From Cyanidioschyzon merolae (taxonomy: Eukaryota): DNA of 64,000 nucleotides. The position numbers and the translations under genes are program-made. Below the pieces are notes generated by a model. That model did not search any database. It was not told where the DNA came from and was given only the letters and a program-made list of their open reading frames with translations. The stretch lies in the NCBI GenBank assembly GCA_000091205.1, contig AP006495.2. The stretch is one strand, 5' to 3'. This document shows positions 1,579 through 61,812 of the stretch, one piece after another; the first letter of the stretch is position 1, and every line of letters starts with the position of its first letter.

Positions 1579-1633
1579 CTGCATCTGCTGCTCTTGCTGC
1601 TGCTGCTGCTACTGTTGCTGTTGCTGTTGATGT
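1579..1633. repeat. (CTG)n/(CTGTTG)n microsatellite
   Basis: ctgctgctgctgctactgttgctgttgctgttg run; it produces the poly-Leu ORF 1198-1770, which is probably spurious. Confidence 0.9.
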
Positions 1634-12934: not shown

Positions 12935-13090
12935 GAAAATACGAAACGACCATAACATCCGAGAAGAAGTATGGGTAATGGAACTTGGAGGTAGGCGCTT
13001 CATGATGGACGCTTTCTCGAAAGCCATTATCGATCCCGAGTGCTGGGATCCATGGTCAATGGAAACGTTTTGTCATCCGGAAAAAAATTT
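12935..13090 (+). mobile_element. SINE-like short dispersed repeat, copy A
   Basis: gaaacgaccataacatccgagaagaagtatgggtaatggaacttggaggtagg ... catgatgg ... gaaagccattatcgatc ... ctgggatcc ... aaacgttttgtcatccggaaaaaaa. It is collinear with copies at 17455 and 50790 and reverse copies at 34050 and 7745, and has an A-rich 3' end. Confidence 0.6.
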
Positions 13091-15961: not shown

Positions 15962-17454
15962 CGGTCAGCCATGCTGCAATCCGAAGAAGAGTCGTGCCGC
16001 GGTCGCTGTCGTGCGGGCATGCACGCAGCGTGCAGGCAGCATTTGCCTCGCGGGGCGATGACCGCGCATCACGCTGGTACCGCCTCTTCCATTTTCAGTG
16101 CCCGATGCGTACGAGACCGCGATGGCGTATAGGCGCGTCGCAGAGACTGATATTGGTACCGTAAAGTTTACAATACATTGGAGCGAGTTCTCGGGATACG
16201 TTGCTGCAGCGCTTCTTCATATGAGCAGCTCATCACGAGAGAATGGTTGTGCGGGCCCCTAAGAAAACCGGGTCTTCGTCTCCGTCAATGATGCTTGAAC
16301 GCGGATTGCGTCAGGTAGGTCCCTCGTGGTGCCTTATACAACGTATCGATATGGGTTGAACTGAACCGGGTGCCGACATGAATGATCTACGACGGGGCCG
16401 TTCGCACTGCCCACGTTAGGTGCGACCTGCTGAATCATGGGCATGGATTTGTTGGCAGCGGCTGCTCCACGAGATAAGCAGGTGGCACGGGACAGCATAT
16501 TCAGGGCTGGCGCTGCGATGAAAACCGGCACCTGCCATTCCCGCTGGGTGCGACAGAGCGCGCTCCAGAATCCAGCGTTTCCCTCAACGCACGACGCTAC
16601 GCTGAGGCTGCAACGAATGAAATACCAGTACCTAGACTGGTGCGGTCCCCGAAGGACTCGCGCGGCTCGCAGCGCTGTCGCACAGGCATGCACCGACCGT
16701 GCATAGCATGTGGGTGCCCCGCATACGCCCCACGAGGAAGTGCCGGCATTCTAGCAACCGAATGTATGGCTGCATATGAAACACCCGCGTTTCGAGCTCT
16801 GCCGCCATTGCCATGAGGAACGTCCTCAGCGCGTGGACCCCGAAACTCGATTTTATTTGTTCGTGCGAGTGCCACCAGGTGCAAGCGGATGCAACGAGGA
16901 TCTTGCGTATACAGCGCGCCGCGCTTCGGTGCCGCTGCGCCCAATCGCTCCGCGAACGTCACCGCGAGAGCCCATCAACGGCGTATCCGGCCACGCACTC
17001 TGAGTGTAGCACTGGCAACTGATGGTCCGCTAAACGAGCCTCAGCGCTCATTAGTGGCGCACAAACTCACACTCTACCTTCTAGGCGGAAGGTCCAGCGA
17101 ATCGGATGCGCACCCGGGCTCAATGCGCTCTCTGCGCCTACCTTCTGTGGTGGGTGTCGAGCTCAAACCCGCATTGCCAACCGACAACGCATTCCATGCA
17201 TGATCACGAAGGAGAGAGGCGGCTTCCACGATATATCCTAACAACCAAGTTTCTCCAGCGTGTCGTGCAGCGAAGACAAACCTGCATCCGTAGACTGTCT
17301 GAGCACAAACTGACGACGAGACCCGATTCTACGTCGGGTGAAGCACCCCTCGAGCTGACGCCCTCTATGGTATAGAAATGCTGTTCTAGCTCTACGAACT
17401 ATCTGCTCGAGCGGTTCAGGTGCAAAGGCGGATACAGAAAGGCAGGTTCTAGGC

Positions 17455-17645
17455 ACACACGATAGGACGTATGAAACGACCAGAATATCCGAGACGAAGT
17501 ATAGGTAATGTAACATGGAGGTAGGGGGTTGATGGATACCTCACCGCGCACTGAAAAAAACACACACAAAAAAGTAAGAAAAGAAAAATGCGCATAATCG
17601 GAGAACGCTGGCCTAAGTAAACGTTTTGTCCATGAAAAAAACGGC
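17455..17645 (+). mobile_element. SINE-like short dispersed repeat, copy B (with an internal A-rich expansion)
   Basis: cacacgataggacgtatgaaacgaccagaatatccgagacgaagtataggtaatgtaacatggaggtaggg ... gtaaacgttttgtccatgaaaaaaa. Confidence 0.55.
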
Positions 17646-25836: not shown

Positions 25837-28800
25837 ATGCAACGGGGTGAGTATTTCCAAGGTTTGGTGCTGGCAGCGCACACTCGCGGATGTATGCGCG
25901 ATGCTCCGTTTGCCTCGCGAACTAGCTCTTCGAGAAGAAACATTGTGTTTGGCTGCTCATCGCTCATCGCTGCAATACTCGGGTACGGCAGGCATTTCCG
26001 CAGCAAGTGCAAAGCTCTTCATGCCGAAGAGCGTGGATCACTTCTAACCGGGACATCGACTCGCTCTGGGAGAATCTGGGCGAGCATGCAATGCTCGGCC
26101 GTACCACCTCGTTCCGACGCACTGCTCGACAAAACCCAGCGCTTTTTTTTCGCGAGTATCCGCTACGGTGCTTCGATGTACGGGCTGGTGGTACGTGCCC
26201 AGCAATATTGAAAATCGAGCGCCATGATCGTTCAGCAGTGGCCCAGGAGAACTGTTTCAGGTGTATACACGGGGCGCCAGAGCCCTGCTGGATTCCCGAC
26301 ACGTCACGTACCGCTGCCTCGTGCCGAGCTGGGGATTCAATGCCCTCTCGCCTGATCAGTGCTTCTTTCATGCAAGTATTGGGCGTTTCGGTACGATACC
26401 CGTGCGGCGTACTAAACGATGCTTTCGACAGTTCGCTCGTTAGAAAGCCACTGGACGATCCGGAAGTAGCAAATATTTCTGAATGTTGATCGATACTTTC
26501 AACTCTCGGTCCAGAAAGTGCTTCCACGCAATGGTGCTGATGGAGTCACACCGCAGCCAGCACCTCAACCTCCATGGTCTCGCTATCCGGCAATCGATGA
26601 GCGTACCGCACACTCGTTGGAGCATCGGACTCGGTTTCATTCTCTTATTCTGTACCAGTTTCAGCATGCACGCGTGCTCGCGATGCGTTGATATGCTCCT
26701 GAATGCATCGATGCGAATCGTTTACAATCGATTCCTGTACTCGTTGTACGCTCTCGTCGAGCGAGCAGGCGAGAAGCGTTGCGCGCTCCAGTACGTCCAG
26801 CGCCAAAGGCTACTCTAAAGCGAAGCGACTCGCTGGTCATTGCCGTTTCCAACTCATTCAGCAGGCTGCCGAAAATGCGCTTCTTGTCGTCGTACGACCG
26901 AAACCGTTGGCGAACCAGCTGGATCTCATGGCTGTCTGTCAAAAAGATCGTCTGCATGATCCATTTTTACGTTCATGTTCGCTCTGAATGAAGCGTACGA
27001 AACATGCCGTCTGGTCGGTACGGTGTCCGGAGCGTTGGGACAAGCTCTGACGCGGTCATTTGATTTTTCGGGGGAATCCTCCTAGTGCCTATGATGCACG
27101 TGTCTCGATGATGTTGAGCCGTCGAAAAATCTGAGCAGCGCCATCCGCTTTTCTTTCAGGTCTTCGGCTGCGTTCTCTTGATGTGGAGGCACGGCGGCAT
27201 CCATGATGTCCTTGAAAGCGGGATCCGCGCCCATAAAGAACTCTGTCTCTCTCCATCTGCCGTGAACGATTAAAATCAGTCTCGTAGCGCGACTCGGACC
27301 AAGGTTTCAAACAGCGCCTGCGAATGGGTATGTCGTCGATCGGGATCGTCGCTGTAGAATTGAAACCGTGAGCGAGCTCCACCAGTGCCTGTCGTGGAGC
27401 TGTTCGAAGGCGTTGTACGTGCTAGCAGAGCCCAGCCACAGCTCGCTGAGGAAACCGCACAGTACAATATAGTACCGAAACGTCCTGTAATATATTCGTC
27501 CTTGATGTGACAGACGAGGTCCATACCGCATAATACCAATTTCAGTCGCGAGCTGCACTACCGCTCTTGAATGATGGAAAGCGAGGTTGTCTACCAGCAG
27601 GACAGAGGTATTTAAGAGTGAGGAACCGGGAAGCGTGCGTCGAAAAAGAATGGTGTGTTGCACGATCCTATCTTTTCGGCGATTTGTAAGCGACTACAGG
27701 ATTGAATCATCGCTAGGGCTGATCTTTTCGTGATTATTGCTAGTTGCTTTCTGATGAGCGGCGGTTTCCCCATTTTTGAATACTCATATGCAACTGGTCT
27801 ATCCCTTCTCCCGACTGAGGTCTCGTCGAGCGAGACGAACGCTCGCTAACCTTGTCATAAACGTTCGCATTGCAGTACAACATCCATTGCGTGTCGGTCA
27901 ACAAGTGACGATCGTCTACACAAGCGTGCATTTTCGTTTGTCCATCCGTGCCCCTTTATCAACTTTCTTCTCAACGGTATGGAAACGCCCATCCTGTGAC
28001 CTCTTTGTTCGCATTTTTTCCTGAACGTGTGGAGTGGGACGGATCGACGACGAGACAGTCGAGCAGATACACTTTCCCCAGTTCTTTCTTGGATGCACGA
28101 CGTTCAGGATATTGACCACGGAGTGCGTGGCTCATTCACCTCCTGATCGTAAAATGAATGACTTGCACAACTAAGGCCGTTTTCGCGAGCGAGCAGGGAC
28201 AGCGACCGTCTTTCCGCGACCTCTCATCAATCCACCGCATACAATCGTCTTGGAACGGACTCGCGAGAAAACAAACAAACAAACCGAAAACGACGCACTG
28301 GTATATGTATTCGAGCGGTCACGGCTCTGAGTCAAACGGCCAGTTCTGAGCGCTGCCCGCCTGCAATCGCACATCGACGGTGCCGTCTTCGTTTCCAGTG
28401 CCTGGATAAATGCTGAAACATGACGAAAGGTTGCCTCTGTGCGGTTCGAGGTGTGCACCGGTCACTTGGATCGAACGACCAACCGAAGCAGACACTGTTG
28501 AACGCATCACCCCTTCAACGATGATAGATGCCCACTCAAGCTGTCCCGATGATCCGCAAGGTGCCAAACATCGCGATGGCCGACAATTTTCGTAGAATTG
28601 CGTAGTTGTGTGAAAAACTGCGATATGGACGTGGACGCTTGTACACTGCCTTCATTGCAAGTGCGTCTAGCGCTAAAAAACCTCAATACTTCAATTTGAC
28701 AATCGCACCGAACACCGAGAGCATGTGACTCGGCCAACGCATTCGAGGATCAATGGAGATTTGTATCCTTGCTAGCAACAACAGCTGGCACACGTCCCGA

Positions 28801-30120
28801 AATGACACGCTCGTTTTCTTGATTTTTGCGAAAGGAGAACCCATGCGTTGCGAGCAGACACGTTCCCATCGAGTGTTTGGCGATGGAGATCAACGCCTTG
28901 CCAAACAAGCGGTGCCTTGCACGCCAACATATCCACCGCAGTCAGTTTCAGATGGTGTTCGCGGAGTGGCGGACCGCTCTATCCAGTGTGAGTAGCAGTG
29001 GCGGTCCCTCAACACGCGTTTCGAACGAAGTGGTGCAGCACCGTTTTATGCATGTGTTCGTGACAAGGCCAGAGTCGCTCCAGCCGAACGACATGAAACC
29101 AAGACGCAGCGCCACCGGAGAAACATCGAAAAAGCTTATCTAGCTCCACACGCTGCCTAAGGACTTGCCAGTACGTAAGTCAGCGCATTCATGAAGCGTG
29201 GCAAGCGTTCGGTGACGTGAGGCGCTACGAGCACTCGAGAAAGCATACATGCAAGGAGCGTAGTTTCCTGTATGCGGTCTGCTTCTATTCTGGCCAATCG
29301 GTGACTCAGGTTCAGCACAAATACATGGAACACGAAAGCGTCGTGCAGAAGCACTTTAGGGTTCGTGTCTCTCTCTGCAAACCAAAACACACACCATTTC
29401 CTGAGCATATGCCGGTGCAAGCGCGGCTGCGTAGACGCAGCGACGGACAAGCCAACAACAGAGCAGTGTTTTGTTCGCGGGAACGTTTACACTAACCGGG
29501 GAACCTCGGAGTGCCCAGTTAGTAACGGCACTCGGAAAAACGTTCATTGCTCAACGTCCTACCTCCAAGCTCCACTACGCCTGCTTCCCGCTCGGACGTA
29601 CTGGTCACTTGCCACGTTCTATCGTACGTCGAGCCTGCCGTGAGCGCCCGCGATAGCACATGTGCCGCCAGTACGGACGCAGCACGGAGACAGAGCGACT
29701 TTGACGTCTCATGAAGGGTACCGACTCCCGGCGTCGTTCACCCGACACGGTGCCGCCTCTCGTCGTCGATTCGCGCTCGGACAGTCTACGTCCGCAAGCG
29801 TGCCTTTGCGGCACGACGCTTTCGAGAGAGCTGGCTCTTCGGATGAAGACCCTAAGGTCCTCACCCGTCTCCTGCGCAAACCTGTGTGGAAAGCGTTCTC
29901 GGTTGACAGCGCGGGCTTTTGATCCGCAACCATCTGTGTGAAAGTCCCCAAAACACTAGACCCGCGTTCTCATCCAGTTCACGGAGCCTTGCACCTGGAG
30001 TCAACAGCGCAAGGCCTTGCCACCCGACCTGAGCCCTGCACTGGACGCCGCGGAGCGCCGACGCCGTGGCTTGGGCGCGTCCTCCACACTCGGGTTCCAC
30101 TGGGGAGGCCCTCGCTCAAC

Positions 30121-34049: not shown

Positions 34050-34185
34050 TTTCCATGGACCTGCGTTCTCCGGCAGTGCGCTTTATATTCGCGCGCAGTG
34101 AAGCATCCGTTGCTCCGCGCCCTACTTCCAAATTCCATTATCCATACTTCTACTCGGATCCAGTGGTCATTGCCTATGTTCTATC
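34050..34185 (-). mobile_element. SINE-like short dispersed repeat, copy D (reverse orientation)
   Basis: The reverse complement ...gaacataggcaatgaccactggatccgagtagaagtatggataatggaatttggaagtagg...ggtccatggaaatgtccttgtcaatc matches copies A and C. Confidence 0.55.
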
Positions 34186-34941
34186 GTGCGCCGCATGCCG
34201 GTTGTTTCGTATCCCCCTGTGGCGCTGGAACAGATGTGTCATAGAGCCGGACCTGCATTGCCATACCACTGAGGGCGTCGGATCATGGCGGGGTGCACTC
34301 GACACGGATTCGGGACTGATCAGCATGCTGGGAACCAGCAAGTTGTGCTAATAGACGAACTGCCTGCGGCAGCGCGAAGCGATCCACTAGGAGTCCATTG
34401 CGACCTGAGAAACGTGCAGACGCTGCCTATCTGCACCTAGTTTCAGAATAATATGCGTGGCGGGCGAGCTGCTCAGGTTTCGCGGCTGCAGCAGCCACTG
34501 CAGAGTCGCACGAAGCGCAAACTCGGCAGACTCGTACAGTTCCAGGGACGTTCCGCCTCGAAGGTGAACTTTCAAAGTTACGGGAACGTTTCCCCCTTTC
34601 CAAGTTCATCGTACAGGGCGGCAAGGAATATATTCATATATTGGCTGGTGAATCGAGAGTCTCTGTGCTTTATTCGAAATAGCGCGCTCGATGCGCGCAC
34701 CTGAGAGATCAGGCAGTCACGAGAATGACGCGAATTTCAATGTTGGAGGGAAACGCGAGCATGACAGTACGTTTTCTTGTTGGTCTACCCTTAATGTTGT
34801 ACGTGCGTTGTATTCGTGGCAAAGTATAATTTTCAGTTTAACTGTGTTTCAGTCCTCAAGCAATTATATTCAACTGATTTTTCGCGATTTATAACAGAAG
34901 CGTTCGAAGTGCGCTCTTTTTCAAAAAGATAAAAACGGAAA

Positions 34942-36800
34942 GTGATGGTAAAGCACGTAGGTGATCCTGGAGGCCCAATGTCGCTGGCTGCCAGAAAAAA
35001 AAACAAAAAATGGAAGAGCAAAGAGGAACAGGAGAAGACGAAGAAGCAAAAGAGGGAGCCCCTACGTCAAAGGCTGCAAGAAAGACGACTGTACGGCGAG
35101 ATGGCGGTGAAATCCTGTCTTCTTAAACATATGAAGGATCCGTACATGGAAAAGCTGCGAGAGGCTATCAGAAACCGTATTGAGTCGCACACCTTGAGTA
35201 TTGTAAAGGCTTCTTCAGGACTAATGCATTTGGCGAAGAAGATATATCATGACGTGACGAACATCAAAACAGTCGAGTTTCCGGAAGAATTTTTCTCAAC
35301 AAAACCTTTTTCGTCACCTGATGCTTGGCACCGGGGAAGCGTCGAGGGCAGATGAGCGAGTGCATGCCCTCCCCGAGAATTACGCCGAGCACTGCCTCAG
35401 CGGTATTCGATACATGGGTGACGCAGATATTTACGAATACGGGGCGATCAAGGACCTCACGAACCTGAAGAACCATCCGACTATGAACCTCGAACGTTTC
35501 ATGATAGGCGCCGTGTTTGCGCTGTACCCGGGCCTCACTCGCCAGGGGATATGGGCTATCATCAATGGCATCACGAACGATTTCCAGTTCATACTGGAGA
35601 TCGAATTCGTCGGCAAGAAGGCACCATGCAGGAGAAAGAATGAAGCCTCTGTCATCCGTGTGGCTGTTCAAGAGCACCGTGCGGTCTTGGGGCTTGTCAA
35701 ATCCTGCAGAAACGATATCAGAGTTGAAAAAAGATGGTATCCCCTCATCCTGCGGTATTTCCTGTTCCTGAAGCGAGAACTCGAACGCAAGGCCGAGATG
35801 GAGCTGATTTGGTGAAAAATGAAGACTCGGAGAGACCGACGGCTGCACTTCTGGATAAGCGCTTCAACGTCGTTCCGATATGCGAGATCGAGTCGCATTT
35901 TGTGACAATCGATTCCAGCGTCCACTAAGGCACCATGAGGGAGCTCAGTCTGGAGTTCGATGTAGGCAGCAAGGAATTTACGGGTGAAAACCGGGAGAAG
36001 TACAGGAAGAATATCTTCGAATTTAAACGTCTCAATACGAGCAAGCAAAAGGTATTCACTGGGATCATCGAAACCGATGGCGTATCCATGTGAGTGTCCA
36101 CTACCGGCGGTTGAATGCGGACCGTCCACTTCCGTCCTCGACATTGCCCGTGACGAAGCATGAAGATGGGAAGGGGGAGGATCCAGCGACACAGAAAGTG
36201 CATGAGAACGACATTGTCGTTGGCGCGGGCCCCGGAAACACGAATATCGTAACCATTGCACTCCCATATGCAGGAAAGATGGTATCGACGGCAGCTTATG
36301 CCAGAACAACATGCATCTTTTAAATTTATCGATAGCAACATATTACCGAGAATCGGGAAGAATGAATGCAAGATTGAATAGTGAAACGTGGAATGCAGGA
36401 GTAAAGGAGCACATGGAGATGCCATCAGGTGCGAATGCCGCACCCGGAATCGTACATATCCCCAAGTACACGTCAGTTGCTGAGACAACGTCCATACAGG
36501 ACGAATCCGTTTCTACCATACAGCATCGAGGGATGTAACATGTATTCCTATGGCTACTGAATGCAAGCGCACGAAAGACATGAGATGGATCCGCTTTTCC
36601 GACGGGTATTGGACCAGTATTGGCAATGTTACACTGCTCACAGGCATGCAATTTGACGCACGCGGATAAGGTGGGTCACTGCGGCTACTGATGACCAGTT
36701 CCGCTCATTGGGCGTACTTCTCATGGCATTGGATCAACGAAGCGGAGCCGATTCCGCTGCCTTGCGAGCGCCATCAGGTCTCAGGCAGGAGAATTTGCCT
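34942..36800 (+). mobile_element. Degenerate TnpB/Fanzor-like element (subfamily 1, copy A): a long ORF broken into at least 5 frames, with a K-rich NLS-like N-terminus
   Basis: Collinear with copy C on the opposite strand (KDPYMEKLREAIRNRI vs KDPFKQKLREATRHL; DLTNLKNHPTMNLERFM vs YLTNLKNHMTMNLERFM). A G-x-G-P-G run [18 protein letters not shown] could be a degenerate RuvC-I. The stretch SETWNAGVKEH...GIVHIPKYTSVAETTS parallels the TnpB W...V.VdPkyTSq block. A degenerate RuvC-III-like WINEAEPI lies at about 36740. Confidence 0.4.
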
Positions 36801-37140
36801 CCTCCATAGACGCTACCACTTTTCACTGAGACCACACGAGAATTATCCCACGGAACAGAGGCATTGTGCAGCAACTTTGCGATTGACATACCAACTTTGA
36901 ACCTCGTTCTTTGCGACACGCCAGCCTGGCTTGGAATTCGCAGGCGTCGGCTCTGGGGAGAAATTCAAAGGCTACTCGCCGCTTTGCCGCACGGCATCAT
37001 CGCTTTCCCGTTTCGTCGTTGTGGCCCGCAAGAAACCTAGCATCGAACTGTAGGGGGCTCTTCGGAAGCAAGGTGTACTATTTCCCACAGCTTGACGTAA
37101 ACGACTGTTCAAGCTGAGCGCTGCGTACGCATTCTCGAAG

Positions 37141-39360
37141 TTGCTACCACACTGCACGATTTTCGTGGAAGCATTCACGCATATGACGCATGTACCAAGC
37201 GAAGACTCCCACAAGATCCAAGTGTCGACAGCGAAATCGCCACCGCCTAATTCGAAGCGAACTATCGCTCACGAGCTGGAGTCGATGGAAACCTCTGCTA
37301 GGCCGAGTCGCTGCCGCGAGACAAACGGCGGGCCCGCAGGCCCCTGCAATCCCTGGACAGGTAAACCGTTTTCGAGCCTCTATTACCAGCTCGAGGAGAA
37401 GCGACGGGCGCTTCCGGTGTTCCAGGAGCGTGAAAGAATCGTCGAAATCGTTAAGCGAAACCGCGTCGTTGTCCTACAGGGAGAGACCGGCTCAGGGAAG
37501 ACAACCCAGGTACCGAGGCTCCTCCTCGAGGCGGGGTTTCAGCGTATTGCTTGTACCCAGCCACGACGCATAGCTGCAGTAAGCGTTGCGACTCGGGTGG
37601 CGCATGAGATGGATGTGCGGCTTGGCGAGCTGGTCGGCTACACCATTCGCTTTGAAGACGTTTCGCATCCGAAACTGACGCGACTCAAGTATGTGACGGA
37701 CGGCATGCTGCTGCGCGAGGCGTTCCAAGATGATAGGCTCTCGCGCTACGACTGTATCATTTTAGACGAGGCCCATGAACGTACACTGAGCACGGATGTG
37801 CTCATGGGTCTTCTCAAGGGTATTCTGAAGCAGCGCCCCGAACTGCATATGGTCGTGATGAGCGCAACCCTGGAACGTGATCATTTTTGCACCTACTTTG
37901 ACCATGCTCCGTTGCTGAATGTAAGCGGTAGAATGCATCCCGTGGATATTCGCTTTGCAGAGCGTCCTGTCTTCGACTATCTGTTCGCAGTGGAGCAGCA
38001 GGTACGCCAAATTCATGAAAACGAACCGGCTGGGGATGTGCTGATCTTCCTCACCGGTGAAGAAGAGATAGAGGATATGTGTAGCCGCCTGCGTCACTAC
38101 TCACGAGCGACGGCGCGAAAACACGGAGCGCCGTTGCAAGTGCTGCCGCTGTATTCGGCGTTGCCCATGTCCGTACAGGAGCGGGTCTTCGAGCCGCCAC
38201 GCCCACCGGAGGCCCGCAAAGTCATCGTCGCAACAAACGTAGCGGAGACCTCGATCACTATCGACGGGATTACCTATGTGATTGATCCAGGCTTTGCCAA
38301 GGTCAAAATTTACAACCCGAGCACTCGCGTGGAATCGCTTTTGGTTTCGCCAATCAGCCAAGACAGTGCAAGACAGAGGGCAGGTCGCGCAGGCCGAACC
38401 CGTCCCGGTATTTGTTATCGTCTGTATACAGAGGAGGCTTTCCGAACAGAGCTGCCGGCGCGCTCACATCCCGAAATCCTTCGTTCCAATCTCTGCAACG
38501 TCGTACTCACTTTGAAGAAACTCGGTATTCATGATCTTATTCACTTTGATTTCATGGACCCGCCGGCGCCAGACACCATGATCCGGGCTTTGGAGATGCT
38601 CTTCTATCTGGGCGCCGTCGACGAAGAAGTCGAACTGACACAACTGGGACGCCAGATGGCAGAATTTCCACTCGATATACAGATCGCTCGAATGCTGCTT
38701 GAGTCGCCACGTCACGGATCGAGTAACGAAGCAATCACACTGGCCGCCATGCTCTCCGTCCCAAACGTTTTCTTGCGTCCACGTCAGCAAGCAGACGAGG
38801 CCGACGCTCGAAAGCAGCGTTTCGTTGTATCCGACAGCGATCACGCCACTTTGGTGCGCGTCTTTGAGGCCTTCATGGACCACGGCTGCGATCGCCAATG
38901 GTGTGCGGAGAACTATTTGAATGATCGAGCGCTCATGCACGCGGTGAACATCCGCCGACAGCTGGAGCTCATGATGCAACGAATGGGTCTACGTATCTGC
39001 TCGCCGGGTAGGCGCGCTCCGGACCGTTGGATACGACTGCGTCGCTGTGTGTTGGAAGGGTTCTTCTCGCAAACTGCATTCTGGATGCGACGACGGGATT
39101 ACTTGACGATTCGGGATGAACAGCTCGTTGGCCTTCATCCCAGCAGCGTCATTCGCCATCGACCTTCGTGGGTAGTATTCCACGAGTTTGTACTTACAAC
39201 CGGGAGCTATATTAGAACAGTGAGCCAGATTGAACCGAAGTGGCTCTTCGAGCTGCCTACAAAATACTACGATCTACTGGAATACAAGGAAGGAGCATCG
39301 CGCAGGGCGCTCGAACTCGCCGCCCGTCTAACAGGACAGCGGCGCTCCGCGGCACCGTGA
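37141..39360 (+). CDS. DEAH-box ATP-dependent RNA helicase, Prp43/DHX15-DHX35 subfamily
   Basis: Motif I GETGSGKTTQ, TQPRRIAA, motif II DEAHERT, SAT, FLTGEEEIE, TNVAETSITIDGITYVIDPGF, QRAGRAGRTRPGICYRLYT; the HA2 and OB-fold C-terminal region is collinear with DHX15. Confidence 0.88.
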   Translation: MLPHCTIFVEAFTHMTHVPSEDSHKIQVSTAKSPPPNSKRTIAHELESMETSARPSRCRETNGGPAGPCNPWTGKPFSSLYYQLEEKRRALPVFQERERIVEIVKRNRVVVLQGETGSGKTTQVPRLLLEAGFQRIACTQPRRIAAVSVATRVAHEMDVRLGELVGYTIRFEDVSHPKLTRLKYVTDGMLLREAFQDDRLSRYDCIILDEAHERTLSTDVLMGLLKGILKQRPELHMVVMSATLERDHFCTYFDHAPLLNVSGRMHPVDIRFAERPVFDYLFAVEQQVRQIHENEPAGDVLIFLTGEEEIEDMCSRLRHYSRATARKHGAPLQVLPLYSALPMSVQERVFEPPRPPEARKVIVATNVAETSITIDGITYVIDPGFAKVKIYNPSTRVESLLVSPISQDSARQRAGRAGRTRPGICYRLYTEEAFRTELPARSHPEILRSNLCNVVLTLKKLGIHDLIHFDFMDPPAPDTMIRALEMLFYLGAVDEEVELTQLGRQMAEFPLDIQIARMLLESPRHGSSNEAITLAAMLSVPNVFLRPRQQADEADARKQRFVVSDSDHATLVRVFEAFMDHGCDRQWCAENYLNDRALMHAVNIRRQLELMMQRMGLRICSPGRRAPDRWIRLRRCVLEGFFSQTAFWMRRRDYLTIRDEQLVGLHPSSVIRHRPSWVVFHEFVLTTGSYIRTVSQIEPKWLFELPTKYYDLLEYKEGASRRALELAARLTGQRRSAAP

Positions 39361-42849: not shown

Positions 42850-43700
42850 TTTGTGGCCATCAGCGAGAGGCCGTTCGATACACATATGATGCTGCTCACA
42901 TCATTTGTATCCAGAGGCTCCCGTCTCGTCCGTTTGCATGCGAAAAGGTTTCGAGCTAGAACTGGAGCCATCGCAGCGACCGTATACTGTGAAGCGTGCG
43001 TCAGTGCGTGGCAAGAAGGGAGCGTAAACGGGTCAGGACCTGTCGACTTGTTCTCTAGTCTGGACATTCCTTCCGGTTCTTGGTTCATCATGGGCAACAT
43101 GGTGTTCCATGAACCCCCAGTCGAATGGAACAGCGTACGATTGCGCATCCAGACAGAACAGAGACCTTGCTGAACAGTTCGCGTACAGAAAATGCCTGCG
43201 ATCGTAGTTTTTACCCAGTTGGGCGCGGAAACGGACGAGCACATCCCTGGGGGGAGCCTCTGCTTCCAGTCAAGAGCAAGTACCAAGGGAAGAAGCCAGC
43301 GTGCATGCGCTACAAGGCAACCCTGGGAGCAGGAGAAAAAGGTTCAATAGACATCTTGAAACACCTGATCACAGTCAAAATGTGAACGCCGCGACAAGCG
43401 TAACGATGTTGTATTCAAAGCAGGTGAGCATGAGAAGCGATTCGTAGATCGCATTCCCCACCTTTGCTCCAAATGCGTCGCTGACACCGGGAAGCCGAGT
43501 CATCGGGACTTGAACGCTGCCATCAACCTCCGTCGACTGCGGAAAACGGTACTCGAGGGAGATGCGTGACCAAAGTCTTTCAATCTGGAGATACGAGAAA
43601 AGAAAAGCAGGCAATCACACGGAAGGCCAGCAAACGCCACCGCTGATAAACCTGGGAGAAGACCAATATACTAGTATCCATGCCCGACATGGAATTCTCT
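42850..43700 (+). mobile_element. TnpB/Fanzor-like RuvC nuclease remnant (subfamily 2, copy B), 3' portion with frameshifts
   Basis: Frame 1, 43369-43569, reads SQSKCERRDKRNDVVFKAGEHEKRFVDRIPHLCSKCVADTGKPSHRDLNAAINLRRLRKTVLEGDA. That is a zinc-finger C-x2-C followed by the RuvC-III motif RDLNAAINL. Upstream frames carry W...F and TEQ-RPC (a degraded yTSQ-C). About 100 bp downstream is homologous to the copy D flank. Confidence 0.55.
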
Positions 43701-43908: not shown

Positions 43909-44946
43909 ATGTTCGTTCTCGGTTTGCTGCACGCTGCGCGGCCTAGTCTTTCTTGGCAGAAACTTGAGCGTCGGCGACGTCTGCACTTGGGGCAGCGGAG
44001 ACCGCGCTCCAGTGGACGTGGTTGCGTGGTGGCGTTGCGGCCGCCACCGGGTGACCCCATCGCCAAGAAGTACGCCGAGCTGGACAGCGACCCCTACGGA
44101 CCCGCGCGTATTCGAAACGAGCCCCAGATGGAAAAGAATCAGTTTGGGATAGAGCAACCGGTGCTAAAACCGTTGGAGCAGTTTCAGGTCTCGATTTTTG
44201 GAGAGCTCCGTGAACCTGTCGAGGAGCAGGACTTTACATATCGCTGGGAGCGGGACAGCGACGAGGACTGGCCCGTCTGTCCGCGCGGACTTTACCCAGA
44301 AAACTACCCGCTTTCGGATGTGCTGAAGGCGGAGTTGGACATGCCAACTGTCGAGGAGTATGACTATGATGAGCGCGTGTACCATATCGTGGAGCTCGAG
44401 CCATCCATCCTCGATATGCTCCAGGAAGACGGCCTGTTGAGAGTTCGAGACAAGCGAGCGCCCAGCGACGCAACGGGTACGAAATCCAAGCGAGGTCAGC
44501 GCGGCATCAGAGCGCCGGTGGAGGGCACCGAACCCGCTCGGGCCTCGAAAGCTGGTCGACGTCGCCGGGAACGTGACGACAGCGAGGCGCTCTTTGACGA
44601 TGTAGAGGATGTCGCATTTGGAGACGATGTTTCGATCCATGAGCTACCGGACGTCGATCCCGACGAACCCACCTTGCTTGAAGACGAGTCTCTTGTGGAT
44701 GGTGATCTCGAAATCGATGACATGATCGACGAAGGCGATCTGGACGTGGATTCCGAGTATGATGACACTGCATTCGAGGACGATACAACGGACTACGACG
44801 CAGACGAGGTACTGGATGATGACAGCGATGACTATCGGTTGGATAGTTTGGACGAAGATGTTGATGTGGATTTTGACTATGACGGCGGGTTCGGTAGCCG
44901 TGCCACCGGACCAATCGGTCTCAGTGATGACTTTGACTATGATTAG
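43909..44946 (+). CDS. Hypothetical protein with an extremely acidic D/E-rich C-terminal half
   Basis: 345-aa ORF. The C-terminus is about 45% Asp/Glu with repeated DxD/DYD units (DDVEDVAFGDD...DLDVDSEYDD...DFDYD). No recognised domain. Confidence 0.4.
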   Translation: MFVLGLLHAARPSLSWQKLERRRRLHLGQRRPRSSGRGCVVALRPPPGDPIAKKYAELDSDPYGPARIRNEPQMEKNQFGIEQPVLKPLEQFQVSIFGELREPVEEQDFTYRWERDSDEDWPVCPRGLYPENYPLSDVLKAELDMPTVEEYDYDERVYHIVELEPSILDMLQEDGLLRVRDKRAPSDATGTKSKRGQRGIRAPVEGTEPARASKAGRRRRERDDSEALFDDVEDVAFGDDVSIHELPDVDPDEPTLLEDESLVDGDLEIDDMIDEGDLDVDSEYDDTAFEDDTTDYDADEVLDDDSDDYRLDSLDEDVDVDFDYDGGFGSRATGPIGLSDDFDYD

Positions 44947-47736: not shown

Positions 47737-48410
47737 GAGGCGGCCGCGCAACCTCACGCACCAGGCAACTGTGCTGTGCACCGCCACATGCTCTGGCATG
47801 CTTTTTAATGTGCGTGCTCGTAGATAAAAGGCAACCATGGCAATAGTTAGGAGGAATCATTGAATCGGTCGTTGAACGAGCGATTTTGGTGAAATTTCGG
47901 TTCGTTTCGAGCGAAACTATGATCGATGGCCATCATGTGATCGCAGCAGGCGATCCAGGCGTTCCTTGGAGCACATCGACTGAAGTCGTGCCCGCTCACA
48001 TGCGCCTAGCGATGAAGCATCGAATGACGAAGCTGGACGTACGTGCGTTGAAGAGGCCAGTCTCGGGAACAGCAGACCATGCTCTGGTGACAGCGTCAAA
48101 AGGCACGACGAGATACACCTTGAAAAGGCCGCTTGTGAGCATTCCGTATCCATGCTCTCGCACCAGCGTAAACAATCACTACGAAATGGATGGAGAAACG
48201 CCGTGCTCCGCGCTTGCTTCAGATACTCACCTGAAGAGCGATTGCCCATGCACGAGGTATTCATCGCGTTTGAGTGCATGACCATGATCGGGTGTATGTT
48301 CATACACCGACGTGCAGACGCTTCCCAGTGGTTCTCGAACGGCGACCTACTACTCGTTTCAACTTCTACTTGTGCAGTTCGAGCCTACGAGGTCGGTCCA
48401 CAAAGTTGGT

Positions 48411-50010
48411 TCATGACAGGCTTGGAGGTCTCCTCTGCGGTATCGCACATTTCCTGATATTGACTGCGGCGTTGACGTCCCCGTTCACGAACTCCGTACG
48501 TTTCCTGCCGCTGGATGAACGCGCCAGTGCAAGGAGTTCTCGAACTCGAGCACTCTTTGCCGTTTGATGCGCTTCAGCTCTTCGTACTTTTCTATCCCCT
48601 GAGCGATAGACTGGCCCGTTTCCATCCCGACTTTCTGAAGTGTACATCGCAGCTCATGGTGCACGTATGTCTTTCGGAACGCATCTATGGGGACCGTGTC
48701 AAAACGCTGTGCGCACTGCTCGTGCGCTAGTGTCGACGGAGCCGGTGTGCTCCCTTTCTGAGGCACCCAGCGCCATGCTCCGTATGCTATTAGGAGCATT
48801 TGACTCTTGTCTTCCTTAAAGACGCTCAACTGATTGAAGAAGTTCACGAATGCATGCTTCTTCCTGCAGCACAGCCTCATTCGCTGACGAGCCCGCCGGG
48901 CTTTGTGTACAGTTTCCACAGCTCCTCGAAATGAGCAGCTTGAGTTGCCAGGAACTCTAGAAAGGCTCGAAAGCTCGCGCATCGGCTCGTCACATTGCTG
49001 AACTCCTTCTTATGGACGTCGAGCTCAAGGCTGATCTCCTCTATGTTGCCGTGAACGGCGCTGGAATCGATTGGCTCAAAGTAGGACGTGATGTTGCACA
49101 GCAGCACGACGTTGAAGCGCTTCCCCAGTAGGAAAGCCTTCTGTCTCTCCGAATCTTCATTTTCTTCCGCATCCAGCTGAATCTCCGCCATGCGTTCGAG
49201 TTATCGGTCCGAAAACACGAAATACCGCAAGATGAGGGAATAACATCTTTTTTCATCTCTGATATCTTTTCTGCTGGATTCGCCAGCCCCAAGACCGCAC
49301 GATGCTCTTGAATAGCCGCACGGATGACGGAAGCCTCATTCATGCTCCTGCGTGATGTCTTCTCGTCGACAGATTCGATCTCCTGTTCATGCAGGCGATC
49401 GTTCATGATGCCATTGATAATCGCTTATTTTCCTCTGCGAGAGATGCCTGGGTAGAGCGCAAATATGGAGCGTTTCATGAAACGCTCCAGGTTCATGGTC
49501 ATATGGTTCTTCAGATTCGTGAGGTACTTGATTGCATCGTAAGTGTGCATATCCGAGTCATTCCTGTGTCGAGCACCGTGAAGCGGTATTCGGCGTGATT
49601 TTCCTGTAGGGTATGTACTCGATCGTTTACGCTCGACGTTTGCCCGGTGCCAAGCATCAAGTGCCGGATAATGGCCTTGTTGAAAAATTCTTCCAGAGCC
49701 TCTAATGTTTTGTTGTCCGCTACGTCGTGGCACGTCTCCTTCACCAAATGCATTATTCCTGAAGAAGCGTTACGAACACTGCTGGAGTACGACGCGACAA
49801 GGTGTCTGGTGGCCTCTCGCAACTTTTGCTTGAAGGGATCCTTGATACCGCGTCGAAGAAAAGCTGTCAGTACAATCTCGTCGTACTGTCGTCTTTCTTG
49901 CAGCATTTGACGTCGGGCCTCCGCCCTTTGCTTCTTCGTCTTCTCCTTTTACTCTGAACTCGGCACTGTTTTTCGTTTTTCTCCGGCAACCGGAGATACT
50001 GGTCCTCCAG
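48411..50010 (-). mobile_element. Degenerate TnpB/Fanzor-like element (subfamily 1, copy C), inverted relative to copy A; it retains a clean RuvC-III motif
   Basis: ORF 48411-48647 reads ...GRKRTEFVNGDVNAAVNIRKCAIP (DVNAAVNI). An upstream frame reads ...VPIDAFRKTYVHHELRC (yTSq-C-like). The 5' part is collinear with copy A, including the K-rich N-terminus EKTKKQRAEARRQ. It has multiple frameshifts. Confidence 0.5.
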
Positions 50011-50789
50011 AATCCTCCGCCTCTATACCCATACGTTTATTTTTTATGTTTCAAAAAGAATTCAATTTGAAAGCATCTGCCATGAACCAAGAAACCTCAC
50101 TGGAATACAGTAATGTGAAGGTTGAAACTCAACTGAGGTCAAACACCGTATTTGGCTATGACTGTAACATCGTTACAGCACGTACGTTAGAGCGGCACGC
50201 TAATCATCAGGATCACGTTTCTCTTGAACGGCGAGAGGCGCGTCGTGTCTCCTGCCTTCCTGATCCCGAGATGCGCATATCGACCGCGCTATAGAAAAAG
50301 GAAAGCAACGAACCGCAAACTAGCAATGAGATAGCATTGTTGTCATCGTCTATGGTGCAAATTCAAAGGGAGAAAAGCTTTCCTCATTGCCGAGAGTTTA
50401 CCTTTTAGGTGGAAGGTCCTGCGAGCCAGACGAGTGTGCCCGGTTTGCGCTCCGTGCGACTCTGCAGTGGCGGGTGCTGTGGTGACATCTGAGCGGCTCG
50501 CCCGCAACGCTGTTTATTCTGGGATAAGCGGCTGTTAGGCTGCGTCCGCGGGCGTCACCCTGGCCGTGGTAGACTCTCAGAATATCGCTTCGCGCTGGCG
50601 CAGGCAGTTCGTCTATCAACACAACTTTCTGGTTCCCAGAATGACAATATGTCCCGACCCAGTATCAGGTGTAGCATTCCCGGAGCCGACGTCCTTAGTG
50701 GTGTGGAAAAGCCGTTCATTCTCTATGATGCATCCGCACCAGCGGTACAGGTGCTATGACGGGTGCTCAAATCAGACACTCAGTGCACA

Positions 50790-50950
50790 ATAGAACATAA
50801 GAAACGACCCGCACATCCGAAATGAAGTATGGATAATGGAACCTGATGGTAGGGTGCATCATGATGGCTGCTGCCCAGAAAGCCAATACCCATTTCGCAA
50901 TCTGGGATCGCTGACCAGTGTAAACTTTTTTCATCAAAAATAAAATTCGA
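50790..50950 (+). mobile_element. SINE-like short dispersed repeat, copy C
   Basis: aagaaacgacccgcacatccgaaatgaagtatggataatggaacctgatggtagggtgcatcatgatggctgctgcccagaaagccaatacccatttcgcaatctgggatcgctgaccagtgtaaacttttttcatcaaaaataaaa. Confidence 0.6.
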
Positions 50951-51135
50951 AATCGCCGCTTGCCGCTCGCGCCACTGAGGTAGGTGACCTCGCGCGTGCG
51001 ACGTTCCGTAGAGCGCCAGGGAGCCGTACACGCCGCAACTTGCCGGCGAGTGTGCGCTTGAAACGCTGACTCAAGATCTCTAGACACGAACTCAATAGTT
51101 CCACGACTTGCAGCTTGCCGTGACTGTGGTGCGGC

Positions 51136-52362
51136 GTGGTAGTCGGGGAGCTCCGTCTAGGCAAGCGGCGGCACGCGTTGTGCATAGCGGGACTGGTGCC
51201 TGGCGTCGAGATAGCAACACTGAGACCTGCAGCGCTGTCGAGACCTGCGAATATGAACGCTGCGGTTCTTCGTGCCCCGACAGACGTGGTTCTCGTCGAC
51301 ACTGGAACAGCAGACGACACGTTCCGGGTCGACGATAACGTGGACGCTGAGAAAGTCTCGCCCAGAGTTCAGCGTTTGTCAGACCTAGACGACGCGGAAC
51401 AACCCCGGAAACAAGACGTTCATCGTGAATTGGATCCAGTGCCCACAGGTCCGCCAGTTCCTTTAGGCGAAATACCGAATATCAACTACATGATCACGAA
51501 CAAGTTCTCGGGGAAAGATGCCACTCTGAAAACAATCCACTCTTTGCTTTTTTGGAGACCCGGTACGCATCTCAAAGTAAAGCAGAGCCTCCGGCAATGG
51601 GCTGGAGTCCCCGCTGACGAGCCACCGTCGGTGGCGGATGCACGCAGACAACGAATGCGTCAGCGACTCATGCGCCTGCGGATGGACGAATTGAAACCAA
51701 TATGCAACGTGCTCGACCTGCCTCTAACGGGGGCAAAAGAAGATCTAACGCAGCGTATCATGCGCTTCCTAGAGCATCCGTTTATCTGGCCTGGACGGCG
51801 CGATCTCGCTGCAGCAGCGCAGCGTAGACGCAAACGCCGTGCGACTCCATCGAAAGGATCCACCGCGTCGAAACGACGACAGCGCCCGCATCCGTGCCCG
51901 AGACAGTCCAAGGACTCCCATTCCATGCATGCAGCTGCGAATACGCTCTCTGACGAATCGTCGGCAGCTTCCGAGGCTTCGCTGGATGACTCCGACTCCG
52001 TACCGTCGGATGCGTCATCCGATGCGGACTTTGTCTCTCATGCGCCTCGAGTGAAGCGGACACCATCGGCTTCCTCAACGGTCCGCGCAGTGGCAGCACC
52101 GAAAGCAGCTCGTTCGCCTAGTGGCGAGCGAGCGCAAGAGAAATCATCAACTCGGACGCTGCGGGCTCAGGTGACGGAAGCACTGGAGACGATCCTGCAA
52201 GACGCCAAAGACCGACTTCATTCCTTGACCATGAACCAGCTGCGGGCACAAGTTTCGCAACGAATTGGGACACCGGTCACCGACGATGAAATGGTTGCTT
52301 TTCGGCAGTTTGTTCGCTCGAAGCTCGTTTCACAAATGCAAGCTGCGAACGCCTCAAAGTAG
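51136..52362 (+). CDS. DEK: DEK-like chromatin protein (DEK core/pseudo-SAP, SAP and DEK_C domains)
   Basis: IHSLLFWRPGTHLKVKQSLRQWAGV vs human LHKLLYNRPGTVSSLKKNVGQFSGF. The SAP box LKPICNVLDLPLTGAKEDLTQRIMRFLEHP vs LKSICEVLDLERSGVNSELVKRILNFLMHP. The C-terminal DEK_C-like LHSLTMNQLRAQVSQRIGTPVTDDEMVAFRQFVRSKL. Confidence 0.72.
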   Translation: MVVGELRLGKRRHALCIAGLVPGVEIATLRPAALSRPANMNAAVLRAPTDVVLVDTGTADDTFRVDDNVDAEKVSPRVQRLSDLDDAEQPRKQDVHRELDPVPTGPPVPLGEIPNINYMITNKFSGKDATLKTIHSLLFWRPGTHLKVKQSLRQWAGVPADEPPSVADARRQRMRQRLMRLRMDELKPICNVLDLPLTGAKEDLTQRIMRFLEHPFIWPGRRDLAAAAQRRRKRRATPSKGSTASKRRQRPHPCPRQSKDSHSMHAAANTLSDESSAASEASLDDSDSVPSDASSDADFVSHAPRVKRTPSASSTVRAVAAPKAARSPSGERAQEKSSTRTLRAQVTEALETILQDAKDRLHSLTMNQLRAQVSQRIGTPVTDDEMVAFRQFVRSKLVSQMQAANASK

Positions 52363-56969: not shown

Positions 56970-58247
56970 ATGGGCAGTGGTGAAGGCACTACAGGGCGGG
57001 CGAATGTTATCTACAACTTTGCGATAGGCTCCAATGTGAACACGGAACGCCTTCGTACGCGAGCGCGCTGGCTTGGTGATCAAGCCGAAATCAAGTTCCT
57101 CAGTGCTGAGCCGGCGGTACTTCGCGGCTACCGCATCGTGTTCAACACGCCGGGGTTTCCCCCCGCAGAAGCAGCGTTCTGCTCCGTGCGAGCTTGTGAG
57201 TGTGGCGGCGGTAGGCGCTGCCCGAGCGAGGTGCACGGCGTGCTCTATGCATTCGACCGTGCTTCGTACGAGTTGCTTTGGGTGACTGAAGGAGGCCTTG
57301 GCGGGCGCGAGTACGGCTCCAGTTACGTGGAGCGGCGCGTGCACGTGGAGACCTACAGGCGTCCGGGGGTGCTCCACGAGGCGATTATCTTCGAGACACG
57401 GCCCAGTCGAACAGTGGAGACCTGGTATCGACGCTGGCTACGACGTGACGTTTATCGACGACGCTGGCTCGCGAGCGAGTTCCGCTGCATTGCGACGAGT
57501 GCTATGGGTGCACTCGAACAAGAACTCGCTGCGCAACGCGTGGCGAATGCCGCGGATCAAGTTGCGTCCACTTCATGGTTGCCGAAAAACGGCAGTGCTG
57601 CACTCCCGCTGTGGTATACGCAGCATGCGCATGTGCTGGAGGTGACCCAGGCGTTGCCACAGGATCATTCCGATCGAATAGCACTGGAGCTGGAACGGGT
57701 GCTCATTCGACCGTCCATGCGATATCTGGGTCTTATTCGGGACGGCGCTTTGCAGTCCGGACTCGATGCAGACTACAGGCGGTTACTTGAAACCTATATG
57801 GTGCACTGGCGGGTCTCGTGTCCATGTGCAGCGCGACCGCAGCCACTCCAGGGGTGGCTTACGGTGTCTGTGAACATGTCGACGCCGGGGTTCTTCCGGT
57901 GGCTGTGGTGGGCGCACCTCACCGGTCGCAAGCGTGTTCTACGCTTTCTGTACCAGCTCTGGAATCGCTGGTTTCTACGGGTTCTCAGTTTCTTTGCGAT
58001 GGAGCGCGAGTTACATGCGATGCGGCTGGCGCAGCGAACGCACGCCTGTATAGGGAAACCGCAAGTGCTTCTCCACTGGGTAGCGGTGTACTTTTGCAGT
58101 GTGATAATTTTGATATGGACGCTGCCGATTGCGCTCGCTGGCCTGCTTTATGGAAGGGGCAACTTCTTTCATGTGCGAGCATCGACGCCGGCGCTTGTTC
58201 CAGGGAATGCTGCACCCGCAGCGCGGTCTGCGAATGTACACGCATAG
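56970..58247 (+). CDS. Gamma-glutamyl cyclotransferase-like (AIG2/GGCT fold) domain protein with a C-terminal extension ending in a transmembrane helix
   Basis: The N-terminus NVIYNFAIGSNVNTERL...VHGVLYAFDRASYELLWVTEGGLGGREYGSSYVERRVHV fits the AIG2/GGCT pattern YFAYGSN...G.LY.l....LD..EG....Y.r..v.V. The C-terminal LLHWVAVYFCSVIILIWTLPIALAGLLYG is a predicted TM helix. Confidence 0.5.
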   Translation: MGSGEGTTGRANVIYNFAIGSNVNTERLRTRARWLGDQAEIKFLSAEPAVLRGYRIVFNTPGFPPAEAAFCSVRACECGGGRRCPSEVHGVLYAFDRASYELLWVTEGGLGGREYGSSYVERRVHVETYRRPGVLHEAIIFETRPSRTVETWYRRWLRRDVYRRRWLASEFRCIATSAMGALEQELAAQRVANAADQVASTSWLPKNGSAALPLWYTQHAHVLEVTQALPQDHSDRIALELERVLIRPSMRYLGLIRDGALQSGLDADYRRLLETYMVHWRVSCPCAARPQPLQGWLTVSVNMSTPGFFRWLWWAHLTGRKRVLRFLYQLWNRWFLRVLSFFAMERELHAMRLAQRTHACIGKPQVLLHWVAVYFCSVIILIWTLPIALAGLLYGRGNFFHVRASTPALVPGNAAPAARSANVHA

Positions 58248-59850: not shown

Positions 59851-61812
59851 CATGCGCGGATTCTGTTCTCGGTGCCATGTTGTTTTATTCTTTTCTGCTT
59901 TGTCGTACTGCTCAGGGCACAGACTCGAGACGCAGTTCATTGGACACGGAGCCGGGACTTGTATTTATTCTTAGAGTCGTCAAGCTGCGCAAACAAGCCC
60001 ACTGCCGGCGACGGCGCGAAGCAATGTGCCACGAGACCACCACGACCAGCAAGACACCTAGACGCAGATGAATCGCTCCCAGGCCTCGGGTAAACTGCGT
60101 ACCGGTAGAGCTGCTCAAGTCGCGCCTCTGCTGAGGTGCGCGGAGCTCTCGCCCGACGGACTCATCCGGCGTCGGTGATCTCACGCTTTGGAGGTAATCT
60201 TTCGAATATACCGAAACCTTTTCCTACTTTCAACGCTATCCATAGAATGGGAAACAACTTTTATCGAGTTGCCAGATAGAAATACATTTTCGATTCGACT
60301 CTTCTGTATGATGCTGGCGAGGGATGGGATCGACATCTCAGGGCGCTGCGCGTGCGCGATCTCTGCAGGTCTACATTCTCTACTGTCAAGACATGTTCAT
60401 GCGTATCCATCTAGCAGATGAATATATCGTTTCTCAAGTTGGAATCTTTTGATGGTGTCGCGTATCGACGGAGTGCCGTTGAACGCATTTGAACGTGGCG
60501 AGTGCCTTGTGCATGTGCCTTGATTCGCGCTCGCATATGAGGGAGGCGTACAAGCCGCATTTACAGACCCACCGCCCGGGGTGCTGCTGGGCACTGTGGG
60601 AGTCAGAGCGCAGCTGAGAAACCTTCGCGTCCGAAAGCGTTCATGGCATGTACCTAGGCATATGCAGTGCACCGACGCGTGTCGCTTTGGCACAGAGCAT
60701 CCCTGCGTTGACATATGTATCGTCGAGATGAGGTTTCGGAGCTGCAATCTGCTCAATCTCCTGCTCTACCTGAGCATAAAAACGCTAATCCCGACGAAAG
60801 AACGCCAAGAAGACTTGCGTGTTCCGTTGTTCTTTCCAGAGAGGCGGGCAGGTGTGTCGCGCTGTACGGCTGCACTCGCTCACAGCGTACCCAATAGATA
60901 ACAAGTACCGATAACCTGCTGGACACGTTTGTTCAAACCTGACGGTCTCTTGCGCCGACGATATCTGAGCTGCGATGCCATGGACGCGGATTCAGCAGTG
61001 TCGCACTGAAAATTCTTGACCATAGTCGGTTGCTGTCGAGGCCTCGGTGTCGCTCACCGTCAGAGAGGCGACACTGCAAAAACGCCACGGGAGACGGCGC
61101 AGGCGTTGTGCCAGAGCTGCAGAAAGCGCCTGGGTCGATGGCTTGCCATGTCGTCGCAAAGTCGGTATGGCGCTAGGCACGCACAGCATAGGAATCGCTC
61201 ATGTCTAGTTCAGAACAATGCGCGGGATTCGCCTCCAAGCATGGCTCGTCATTGTTCCCGTGTCTGCTCAGGCCCGCGATATCCCGCTCAAGCTGGGTGG
61301 ATTCTGCGACGCAACCCGAGAATTCATCAGGATGATTGCTCCAATGCTATGGATCGTCAGACGACCCAGCGTGCGCCCTTGGTAGCGAACCGATACGCTG
61401 GGGTTGGCGGTCCTCGAGGACAGGGCAGCTGCTCATTACCGTCGAGTTTATCACTGCACCGAACGGGAATCGACCAGGGCGTAGTGTATTCCCCGAGAAG
61501 AGCAGCGCTTGCCTACCTGTTTAAGCGAGTTTGTGAATGTATCTGTCTAGCTGTCTGCCTGTTATTGTCGCCCCGCTGTAGCAAGTACATACTGGTCACT
61601 AATCCGTCTGCTAGGATGGGACACATCGCTGGTGATAGTCAGGGAGCAGGCATACCTAGTTCAGCTTGCATGGCCTGATCACTGTGACATTCACACAGCG
61701 CATTCCGGGTTCGTGCACTATGTCTGGACTGGCATCAGCATCGCTGTGAAATGCAGCGGACAGAAGCGGTACCGCAGAACGCTAAGCATCGTCATTTCTT
61801 TAAAATCATTTC

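Follow-up and report, generated by a model that had tools for sequence, protein, structure and literature searches.

Fanzor1 proteins, whose biochemistry and structures were published in 2023–2024, work with an omega-RNA that is derived from the transposon end and carries a 3′ guide, and they depend on a TAM; the catalytic residues of SpuFz1 are D383, E541 and D606 (PMC10432273). RNA-guided, TAM-dependent cleavage of double-stranded DNA has been demonstrated for SpuFz1, GtFz1 and others (PMC10432273). For the red alga Cyanidioschyzon merolae a sole Fanzor1 family, CMe-1A, is listed, with a consensus of ~3.2 kb (Bao and Jurka, 2013, Mobile DNA 4:12, PMC3627910). It is present in ~150 genomic copies, each ~80% identical to the consensus, and it has no TIRs and undetermined TSDs; its 5′ 635 bp also occur as a separate repeat, TE-N2_CMe, and some copies retain intact ORFs (PMC3627910).

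We analyzed a 64,000-nucleotide stretch of C. merolae DNA (hereafter the window), in which a Fanzor-like sequence, copy C, had been predicted at 48411–50010 and described as an inverted paralogue of a second one, copy A. The reference was the 3169-bp CMe-1A consensus together with the 734-aa CMe-1 protein, both taken from the supplements of PMC3627910 (the DNA from Additional file 2). We are highly confident that copy C (48306–50935, minus strand) is a dead insertion of CMe-1A, a Fanzor1-encoding transposable element of this alga. It is already known in kind, since its family, host, consensus and Fanzor1 nature were published in 2013.

Anatomy and decay of copy C

In blastn searches with the published consensus, consensus 2–1950 matched window 50935–48999 at 80.5% identity (E = 0), and consensus 2394–3092 matched window 48999–48306 at 74.8% identity. 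The alignment spans 2.6 kb with E = 0 and is therefore not due to chance. At the nucleotide level copy C has the family order of a TE-N2-like 5′ module, a leader and a Fanzor1 ORF, with 75–81% identity across the three parts, the same host organism and the same protein motifs, and its divergence from the consensus is at the published ~80% level for CMe-1A. Blastn and a three-way alignment show a complete 5′ end, an internal deletion and a truncated 3′ end. By alignment to the consensus, the 5′ module (consensus 2–635) occupies 50298–50935 and the non-coding leader, which joins it to the start codon (consensus 636–905), occupies 50033–50297, both on the minus strand. The Fanzor1 (CMe-1) pseudogene follows at 48306–50032 (minus, ATG at 50032–50030), as delimited by codon-by-codon comparison with the consensus ORF at 906–3110. 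The predicted extent was therefore slightly short: the pseudo-ORF runs from its ATG at 50032 to ~48306, and the element from 50935 to 48306.

From ~50030 to ~48300 the minus-strand frames of copy C are fragments of a single protein, and tblastn matches over the copy are spread across three different frames. The ORF at 48411–48647 (minus) begins with ATG, encodes 78 aa and contains SSSGRKRTEFVNGDVNAAVNIRKC / GRKRTEFVNGDVNAAVNIRKC, and the ORF listing and a three-frame translation place KDPFKQKLREATRHL, YLTNLKNHMTMNLERFM and VPIDAFRKTYVHHELRC in other minus-strand frames, from ~49900 to ~48640. Both VPIDAFRKTYVHHELRC and DVNAAVNI fall within consensus 2394–3092. The original prediction took DVNAAVNI in this ORF for a RuvC-III motif, and correctly so: at 48479–48456 (minus) it corresponds to DFNAAINI of the CMe-1 consensus, in an alignment column where at least 90% of the 108 relatives have Asp. 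The longer motif of copy C, NGDVNAAVNI (48456–48485, minus; consensus NRDFNAAINI), keeps the catalytic Asp codon GAC at 48479–48477. A six-frame scan of the window with the pattern [DE]xN[AS][AS]xN[ILVM] returned two sites, the one in copy C and another at 43507–43530.

Copy C differs from the consensus in lacking consensus 1950–2393 and the last ~77 bp, and in carrying frameshifts, stops and a Glu to Ala change at RuvC-II. The junction of the internal 444-bp deletion lies at 48999–49000 (minus), where 148 codons were removed in frame. This deletion takes out the RuvC-I motif GADPGNTN, including the catalytic Asp; mapped on the predicted structure of the intact relative P0014 (see below), the lost stretch would correspond to the first three RuvC strands plus a portion of the WED beta-hairpin. 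An intron-like gap, or a spliced retrocopy, was considered for this segment and rejected, because its boundaries are not GT...AG. At the other end homology stops at consensus 3092, and the absent ~77 bp are conserved between the consensus and two metagenome copies. At RuvC-II copy C reads IDAFRKT (48668–48688, minus) against VDEFRTS in the consensus, the catalytic Glu codon GAG having become GCG (Ala) at 48682–48680. Of the Fanzor1 catalytic triad, the RuvC-III Asp alone is left. The pseudogene contains four frameshifts, all deletions (−1 at ~49579, −10 at ~49251, −1 at ~48901 and −1 at ~48573), and five stops in the consensus frame, which begin at 49951, 49427, 49203, 48413 and 48368. Copy C is a Fanzor1 member by descent, not a functional member.

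When compared with the consensus ORF, 303 codons of copy C are identical, 69 carry synonymous and 199 non-synonymous changes. The corresponding dN/dS is 0.58–0.59 (NG86) and not 1, which implies either that part of the divergence predates the insertion or that NG86 is biased; we infer a neutral decay of copy C after insertion, which the ratio shows only approximately.

Could copy C, or its ORF at 48411–48647, nonetheless be a functional gene, either for a shortened Fanzor derivative devoid of nuclease activity or for a small protein of other origin in which DVNAAVNI occurs by chance? The ORF does open with an ATG and reaches 78 aa, and related algae from hot-spring metagenomes have an intact ORF of 562–602 aa with the identical 148-codon deletion. 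However, the 78-aa ORF is one frame segment within the 2.6-kb CMe-1A alignment, and the reading frame of its upstream part (MYTSESRDGNG...) differs from that of the family protein. The frame of copy C as a whole is broken by its frameshifts and stops, non-synonymous changes outnumber synonymous ones, and its dN/dS compares with 0.39–0.41 in the intact relatives; moreover, the homologues found include no annotated C. merolae protein. A functional role for copy C or this ORF is thus extremely improbable, and a dead CMe-1A insertion accounts for the locus.

The annotation of the region was also considered. For seven proteins of the window, exact look-ups returned identical C. merolae 10D entries of chromosome 13, within BAM80927–BAM80943 (CMM locus tags). 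BAM80940 lies at 46.8–47.7 kb and BAM80943 at 57 kb, and two accessions are left for the two long ORFs between them; judged from these consecutive numbers, no annotated protein gene would lie over copy A or copy C. An exact protein look-up of a 631-aa window ORF gave no match, and nothing was found with Rfam over 47800–51200.

The retention of DVNAAVNI had been taken to argue that the family was recently an active nuclease. This argument does not hold for a copy that is devoid of RuvC-I, has Ala at RuvC-II and is interrupted by four frameshifts and five stops, and two of the eight motif residues are themselves altered (F to V and I to V). Survival of one Asp codon at ~20–25% divergence is unremarkable, and the persistence of a motif in one decayed copy does not show that the family was recently active. 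Rather than the motif of copy C, it is the D/E/D triad of the intact relatives and their predicted Fanzor1 fold that would speak for a working nuclease in the family.

Fanzor1 assignment of the CMe-1A family

Homology searches recovered 36 and then 141 relatives (E ≤ 0.001), nearly all of them metagenomic, with the precomputed labels DUF8286 (PF26935) on some and PF07282 on one. When 108 relatives, most of them full-length, were aligned, D398 (RuvC-I) and E569 (RuvC-II) proved invariant, and the Arg-Asp of RuvC-III, which includes D636, was conserved in at least 90%; the Asp, Glu, Asp triad of Fanzor1 is thus present in the family at large. An AlphaFold2 model of P0014, an intact 676-aa relative with 39% identity to the copy C composite, had a pLDDT of 91.4 and a pTM of 0.89. 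When the model was compared with the PDB by Foldseek, the best seven matches were the Fanzor1 structures SpuFz, PpFz and GtFz (E 1e-17 to 2e-15, TM 0.52–0.73), and Cas12f came next. The predicted fold is that of Fanzor1/TnpB proteins (WED-REC-RuvC-NUC).

The model superposes over its full length on SpuFz1 (PDB 8GKH, 9CEU–9CEZ), PpFz and GtFz with TM 0.63–0.73 and E ~1e-17, and the predicted arrangement of WED, REC, split RuvC and NUC, as well as the positions of the D/E/D triad in the red-algal family, are those of the characterized proteins, although sequence identity is only ~15%. A further difference concerns the [TS][TS]xx plus C4 zinc-ribbon region (OrfB_Zn_ribbon / PF07282) between RuvC-II and RuvC-III, which reads EFRTSYTHHELGC in CMe-1, with few cysteines, and AFRKTYVHHELRC in copy C; when compared to SpuFz1, the C4 signature is degenerate in CMe-1 (THHELGC... 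vs. CxxC...CxxC). Bacterial TnpB (IS200/IS605, IS607) and Cas12f share with the family the RuvC-III signature RDxNAAxNI, and members of the family give sub-threshold matches to PF07282 (Cas12f1-like TNB). In contrast to them, CMe-1-type proteins are much larger and have a eukaryote-type K/R-rich N-terminus, and CMe-1A is without a TnpA partner and without known TIRs or TSDs.

Pfam searches with the copy C fragments and seven homologues returned no domain, and a search of PDB sequences with a family profile yielded neither Fanzor nor TnpB. PF07282 reached E = 0.51 on the CMe-1 consensus and 25.9 bits on the relative P0232, just below the cut-off of 26.3. The link to Fanzor is drawn from the structural match, from the motifs and from the 2013 paper. 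The predicted Fanzor origin of copy C is borne out by its alignment to the CMe-1A consensus, whose relatives combine the triad with a predicted Fanzor1 fold.

SpuFz1 cleavage has been assayed, whereas the red-algal family is known here from sequence and predicted fold. By analogy with the characterized relatives, ancestral CMe-1A would have encoded a Fanzor1 protein of ~734 aa, a eukaryotic TnpB homologue, able to bind an omega-RNA transcribed from the transposon end. The 3′ flank of this RNA would act as the guide, and double-stranded DNA would be cut next to a short TAM by a split RuvC active site (Asp, Glu, Asp). It is on this analogy that we infer RNA-guided cleavage by the ancestral protein; in the literature searched there was no report of such cleavage for the red-algal family. 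The source of copy C belonged to a sub-lineage already devoid of 148 codons, including RuvC-I, that had been lost in frame. Once inserted, copy C would have decayed neutrally, with accumulation of its four frameshifts, its five stops and the RuvC-II Glu to Ala change. It has also lost its last ~77 bp, which make up the 3′ terminus, where the omega-RNAs of characterized relatives end and the guide begins. Neither a nuclease nor a full guide RNA can come from copy C.

The 3′ end of the consensus contains a possible long-range stem around the stop codon (CAGTAGTGG / CCACTACTG). It was not significantly more stable than shuffled sequences (z = −1.77), and a comparison of three sequences gave one compensatory pair. 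Copy C is without the 3′ half of this candidate stem, because the last ~77 bp are missing. The intact relatives in the metagenomes, which derive from thermoacidophiles and have a confident fold model, could be tested as heat-tolerant RNA-guided nucleases.

Relation of copy C to copy A

By blastn, the window holds two ORF-bearing CMe-1A copies and five solo fragments of the TE-N2_CMe-like 5′ module, as befits a dispersed multicopy family. The solo modules lie at 7750–8370 (plus), 12802–13077 (minus), 17322–17525 (minus), 29482–29750 (plus) and 59897–60279 (plus); they are 69–84% identical to the consensus and amount to about one per 13 kb of window.

Copy A, the second ORF-bearing copy, lies at 34121–36417 (plus) and corresponds to consensus 84–2386 at 81.3% identity (blastn). 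It is 3′-truncated and carries several frameshifts, one stop and an Asp to Gly change at RuvC-I (GGC at 36228). It retains consensus 1950–2386 with the RuvC-I region, a stretch that is absent from copy C, and its homology stops at consensus ~2386 (window ~36417). The 780 bp that follow, up to the PRP43 gene, were searched for the element tail by Smith-Waterman alignment, and the local score of 26 was no better than the shuffle mean of 26.9; a tblastn search for the RuvC-II/III tail at 36415–37200 gave a best E of 1.3. A tail that is decayed but present was therefore rejected. The RuvC-III region of copy A is absent rather than decayed, contrary to the earlier statement that the motif had decayed there, and A and C are partial copies that complement each other. 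The noted collinearity between them stands for the part from the N-terminus to EISLELDVHKKEFS (consensus nt 906–1949, 50032–49000 vs. 34945–~35980, the first ~350 codons), whereas VPIDAFRKTYVHHELRC and DVNAAVNI are without a detectable counterpart in copy A.

Comparison of the window with itself aligned 49016–50857 with 35963–34117 at 71% identity. Over 1836 shared sites the identity is 0.716 and K2P is 0.36; within the ORF the identity is 0.753 and K2P 0.30, with NG86 values of 0.39 for dS, 0.27 for dN and 0.69 for their ratio. Identity to the consensus is ~0.82 for copy A and ~0.81 for copy C, a divergence (18–19%) close to the family average.

The most economical reading is that A and C are two old insertions, in opposite orientation, from related source copies. 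The description of copy C as an inverted paralogue of copy A would instead require that one insertion had been duplicated locally in inverted orientation, with two true paralogues now ~13 kb apart. Some similarity beyond that of unrelated copies does exist: derived substitutions common to A and C number 51, against ~20 expected if the copies were independent, the identity of 0.716 exceeds the 0.679 expected under a star phylogeny, and both copies carry an identical 10-bp frameshifting deletion of consensus 1689–1698 (~35730 in A, ~49251 in C). Subfamily structure by itself, however, predicts common substitutions, and the 10-bp deletion is flanked by direct repeats (AAAGAT...AAAGAT), at which slippage could recur. 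The divergence of the pair is large (K2P 0.36, dS 0.39). Homology ends inside the 5′ end of the element (34117 / 50857) and does not enter the flanking DNA. The lesions also differ, the 444-bp deletion being found in C and not in A, and A ending at consensus 2386 where C runs to 3092; the same 444-bp deletion in an unlinked metagenome copy sets the sub-lineage of C apart from A. Homology without flanks and differing lesions fit two old insertions and not a local inverted duplication, which we regard as very unlikely. A and C are 72% identical to each other and belong to a dispersed family of ~150 copies; they should be annotated as CMe-1A relics, and neither as gene candidates nor as the products of a local duplication.

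The two deletions give conflicting characters on a simple tree: the 10-bp one is common to A and C, and the 444-bp one to C and the metagenome contig L004, which is without the 10-bp deletion. This conflict implies recurrent slippage or recombination between copies. The end of copy A (consensus ~2386, window ~36414) and the end of the deletion in copy C (consensus 2393, window 48999) are within ~10 bp of each other in two independent copies, which may be a coincidence or mark a fragile site.

A deletion sub-lineage and other relics

The junction GAG/TTCAGCAAxGTGAC (1950/2394) of copy C also occurs in L004, together with the same adjacent change of AGCGAG to AGCAAx, and there it falls in an intact ORF of 562 aa (P0001). 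We considered and rejected L004 as the orthologous locus of copy C, because the two are 70.7% identical and their flanks are unmatched. Intact ORFs with this junction are located at 422–2110 of L004, 7457–9259 of contig L005 and 3988–5790 of contig L006, and the P0001 cluster has 18 members, including ORFs of 564–602 aa. ORFs of this type adjoin the same ABC-transporter gene in two samples, a shared neighbor in the contig sequences that suggests a single locus in a different population of Cyanidiales. They are devoid of RuvC-I and have Met or Lys at the position of the RuvC-II Glu.

Measured against the consensus, L004 has a dN/dS of 0.41, which falls to 0.25 for its C-terminal part, similar to the values for a full-length copy, L001 (0.39 and 0.19, respectively). 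The own branch of L004 is ~0.13 substitutions per site long. In neutral-decay simulations the ORF was stop-free in 0.07% of the runs (~0.0007) over this branch, and in 2% when half of the branch was taken to follow the deletion.

Nuclease-dead TnpB derivatives that have been exapted as RNA-guided regulators exist (TldR type). The metagenomic deletion ORFs resemble them in staying open although RuvC-I is gone and the RuvC-II Glu is replaced by Met or Lys; they differ in that core RuvC beta-strands are also missing, and copy C itself is a pseudogene. We regard it as unlikely that the open deletion ORF is a nuclease-dead Fanzor derivative kept by selection and that copy C belongs to the same lineage but has decayed. 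Should this be true, the deletion ORF could, for example, encode a protein that binds DNA under RNA guidance or one that the element needs in order to move, and its persistence in relatives is a small lead to such a possible derivative. The main text of PMC3627910 says nothing of the deletion variant; the sub-lineage is the only part that might be new, and it concerns the relatives and not copy C.

Other relics were found in the window. A much more diverged Fanzor1-like pseudogene, copy B, lies at 26383–27465 (minus) and possibly extends further upstream; in tblastn it has ~30% aa identity to P0014 and P0015 (E 4e-32), and it was undetected by blastn with the CMe-1A consensus. GADP is preserved at RuvC-I, the RuvC-II motif is IDAF, with Ala for Glu, RuvC-III reads RELKVSINI, and several stops interrupt the sequence. 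Copy B looks like a second, older Fanzor1 family of C. merolae, for which the table of Bao and Jurka gives one (PMC3627910). An N-terminal Fanzor1-like fragment of the same diverged type lies at 12304–12726 (plus; 41% identity to residues 34–121 of P0119, E 1.6e-13 by tblastn) and adjoins the opposite-strand TE-N2-like fragment at 13077–12802.

The second site of the RuvC-III pattern, 43507–43530 (plus, context ~43380–43570), belongs to a third kind of TnpB/Fanzor-like relic, IPHLCSKCVADTGKPSHRDLNAAINLRRLRKT, in which a CxxC is followed by a textbook RuvC-III motif. It matches PF07282 (Cas12f1-like TNB) with E = 0.003, was undetected by tblastn with CMe-1-type relatives, and lies just upstream of an ORF at 43909–44946. 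Among the annotated neighbors, BAM80940 (46828–47736, plus), named 'transcription factor APFI', clusters with JGI carbonic anhydrase/acetyltransferase-like proteins of the isoleucine patch superfamily. CMM057C (56970–58247, plus) has a second copy on the same chromosome, CMM171C, which is at least 90% identical (same protein cluster).
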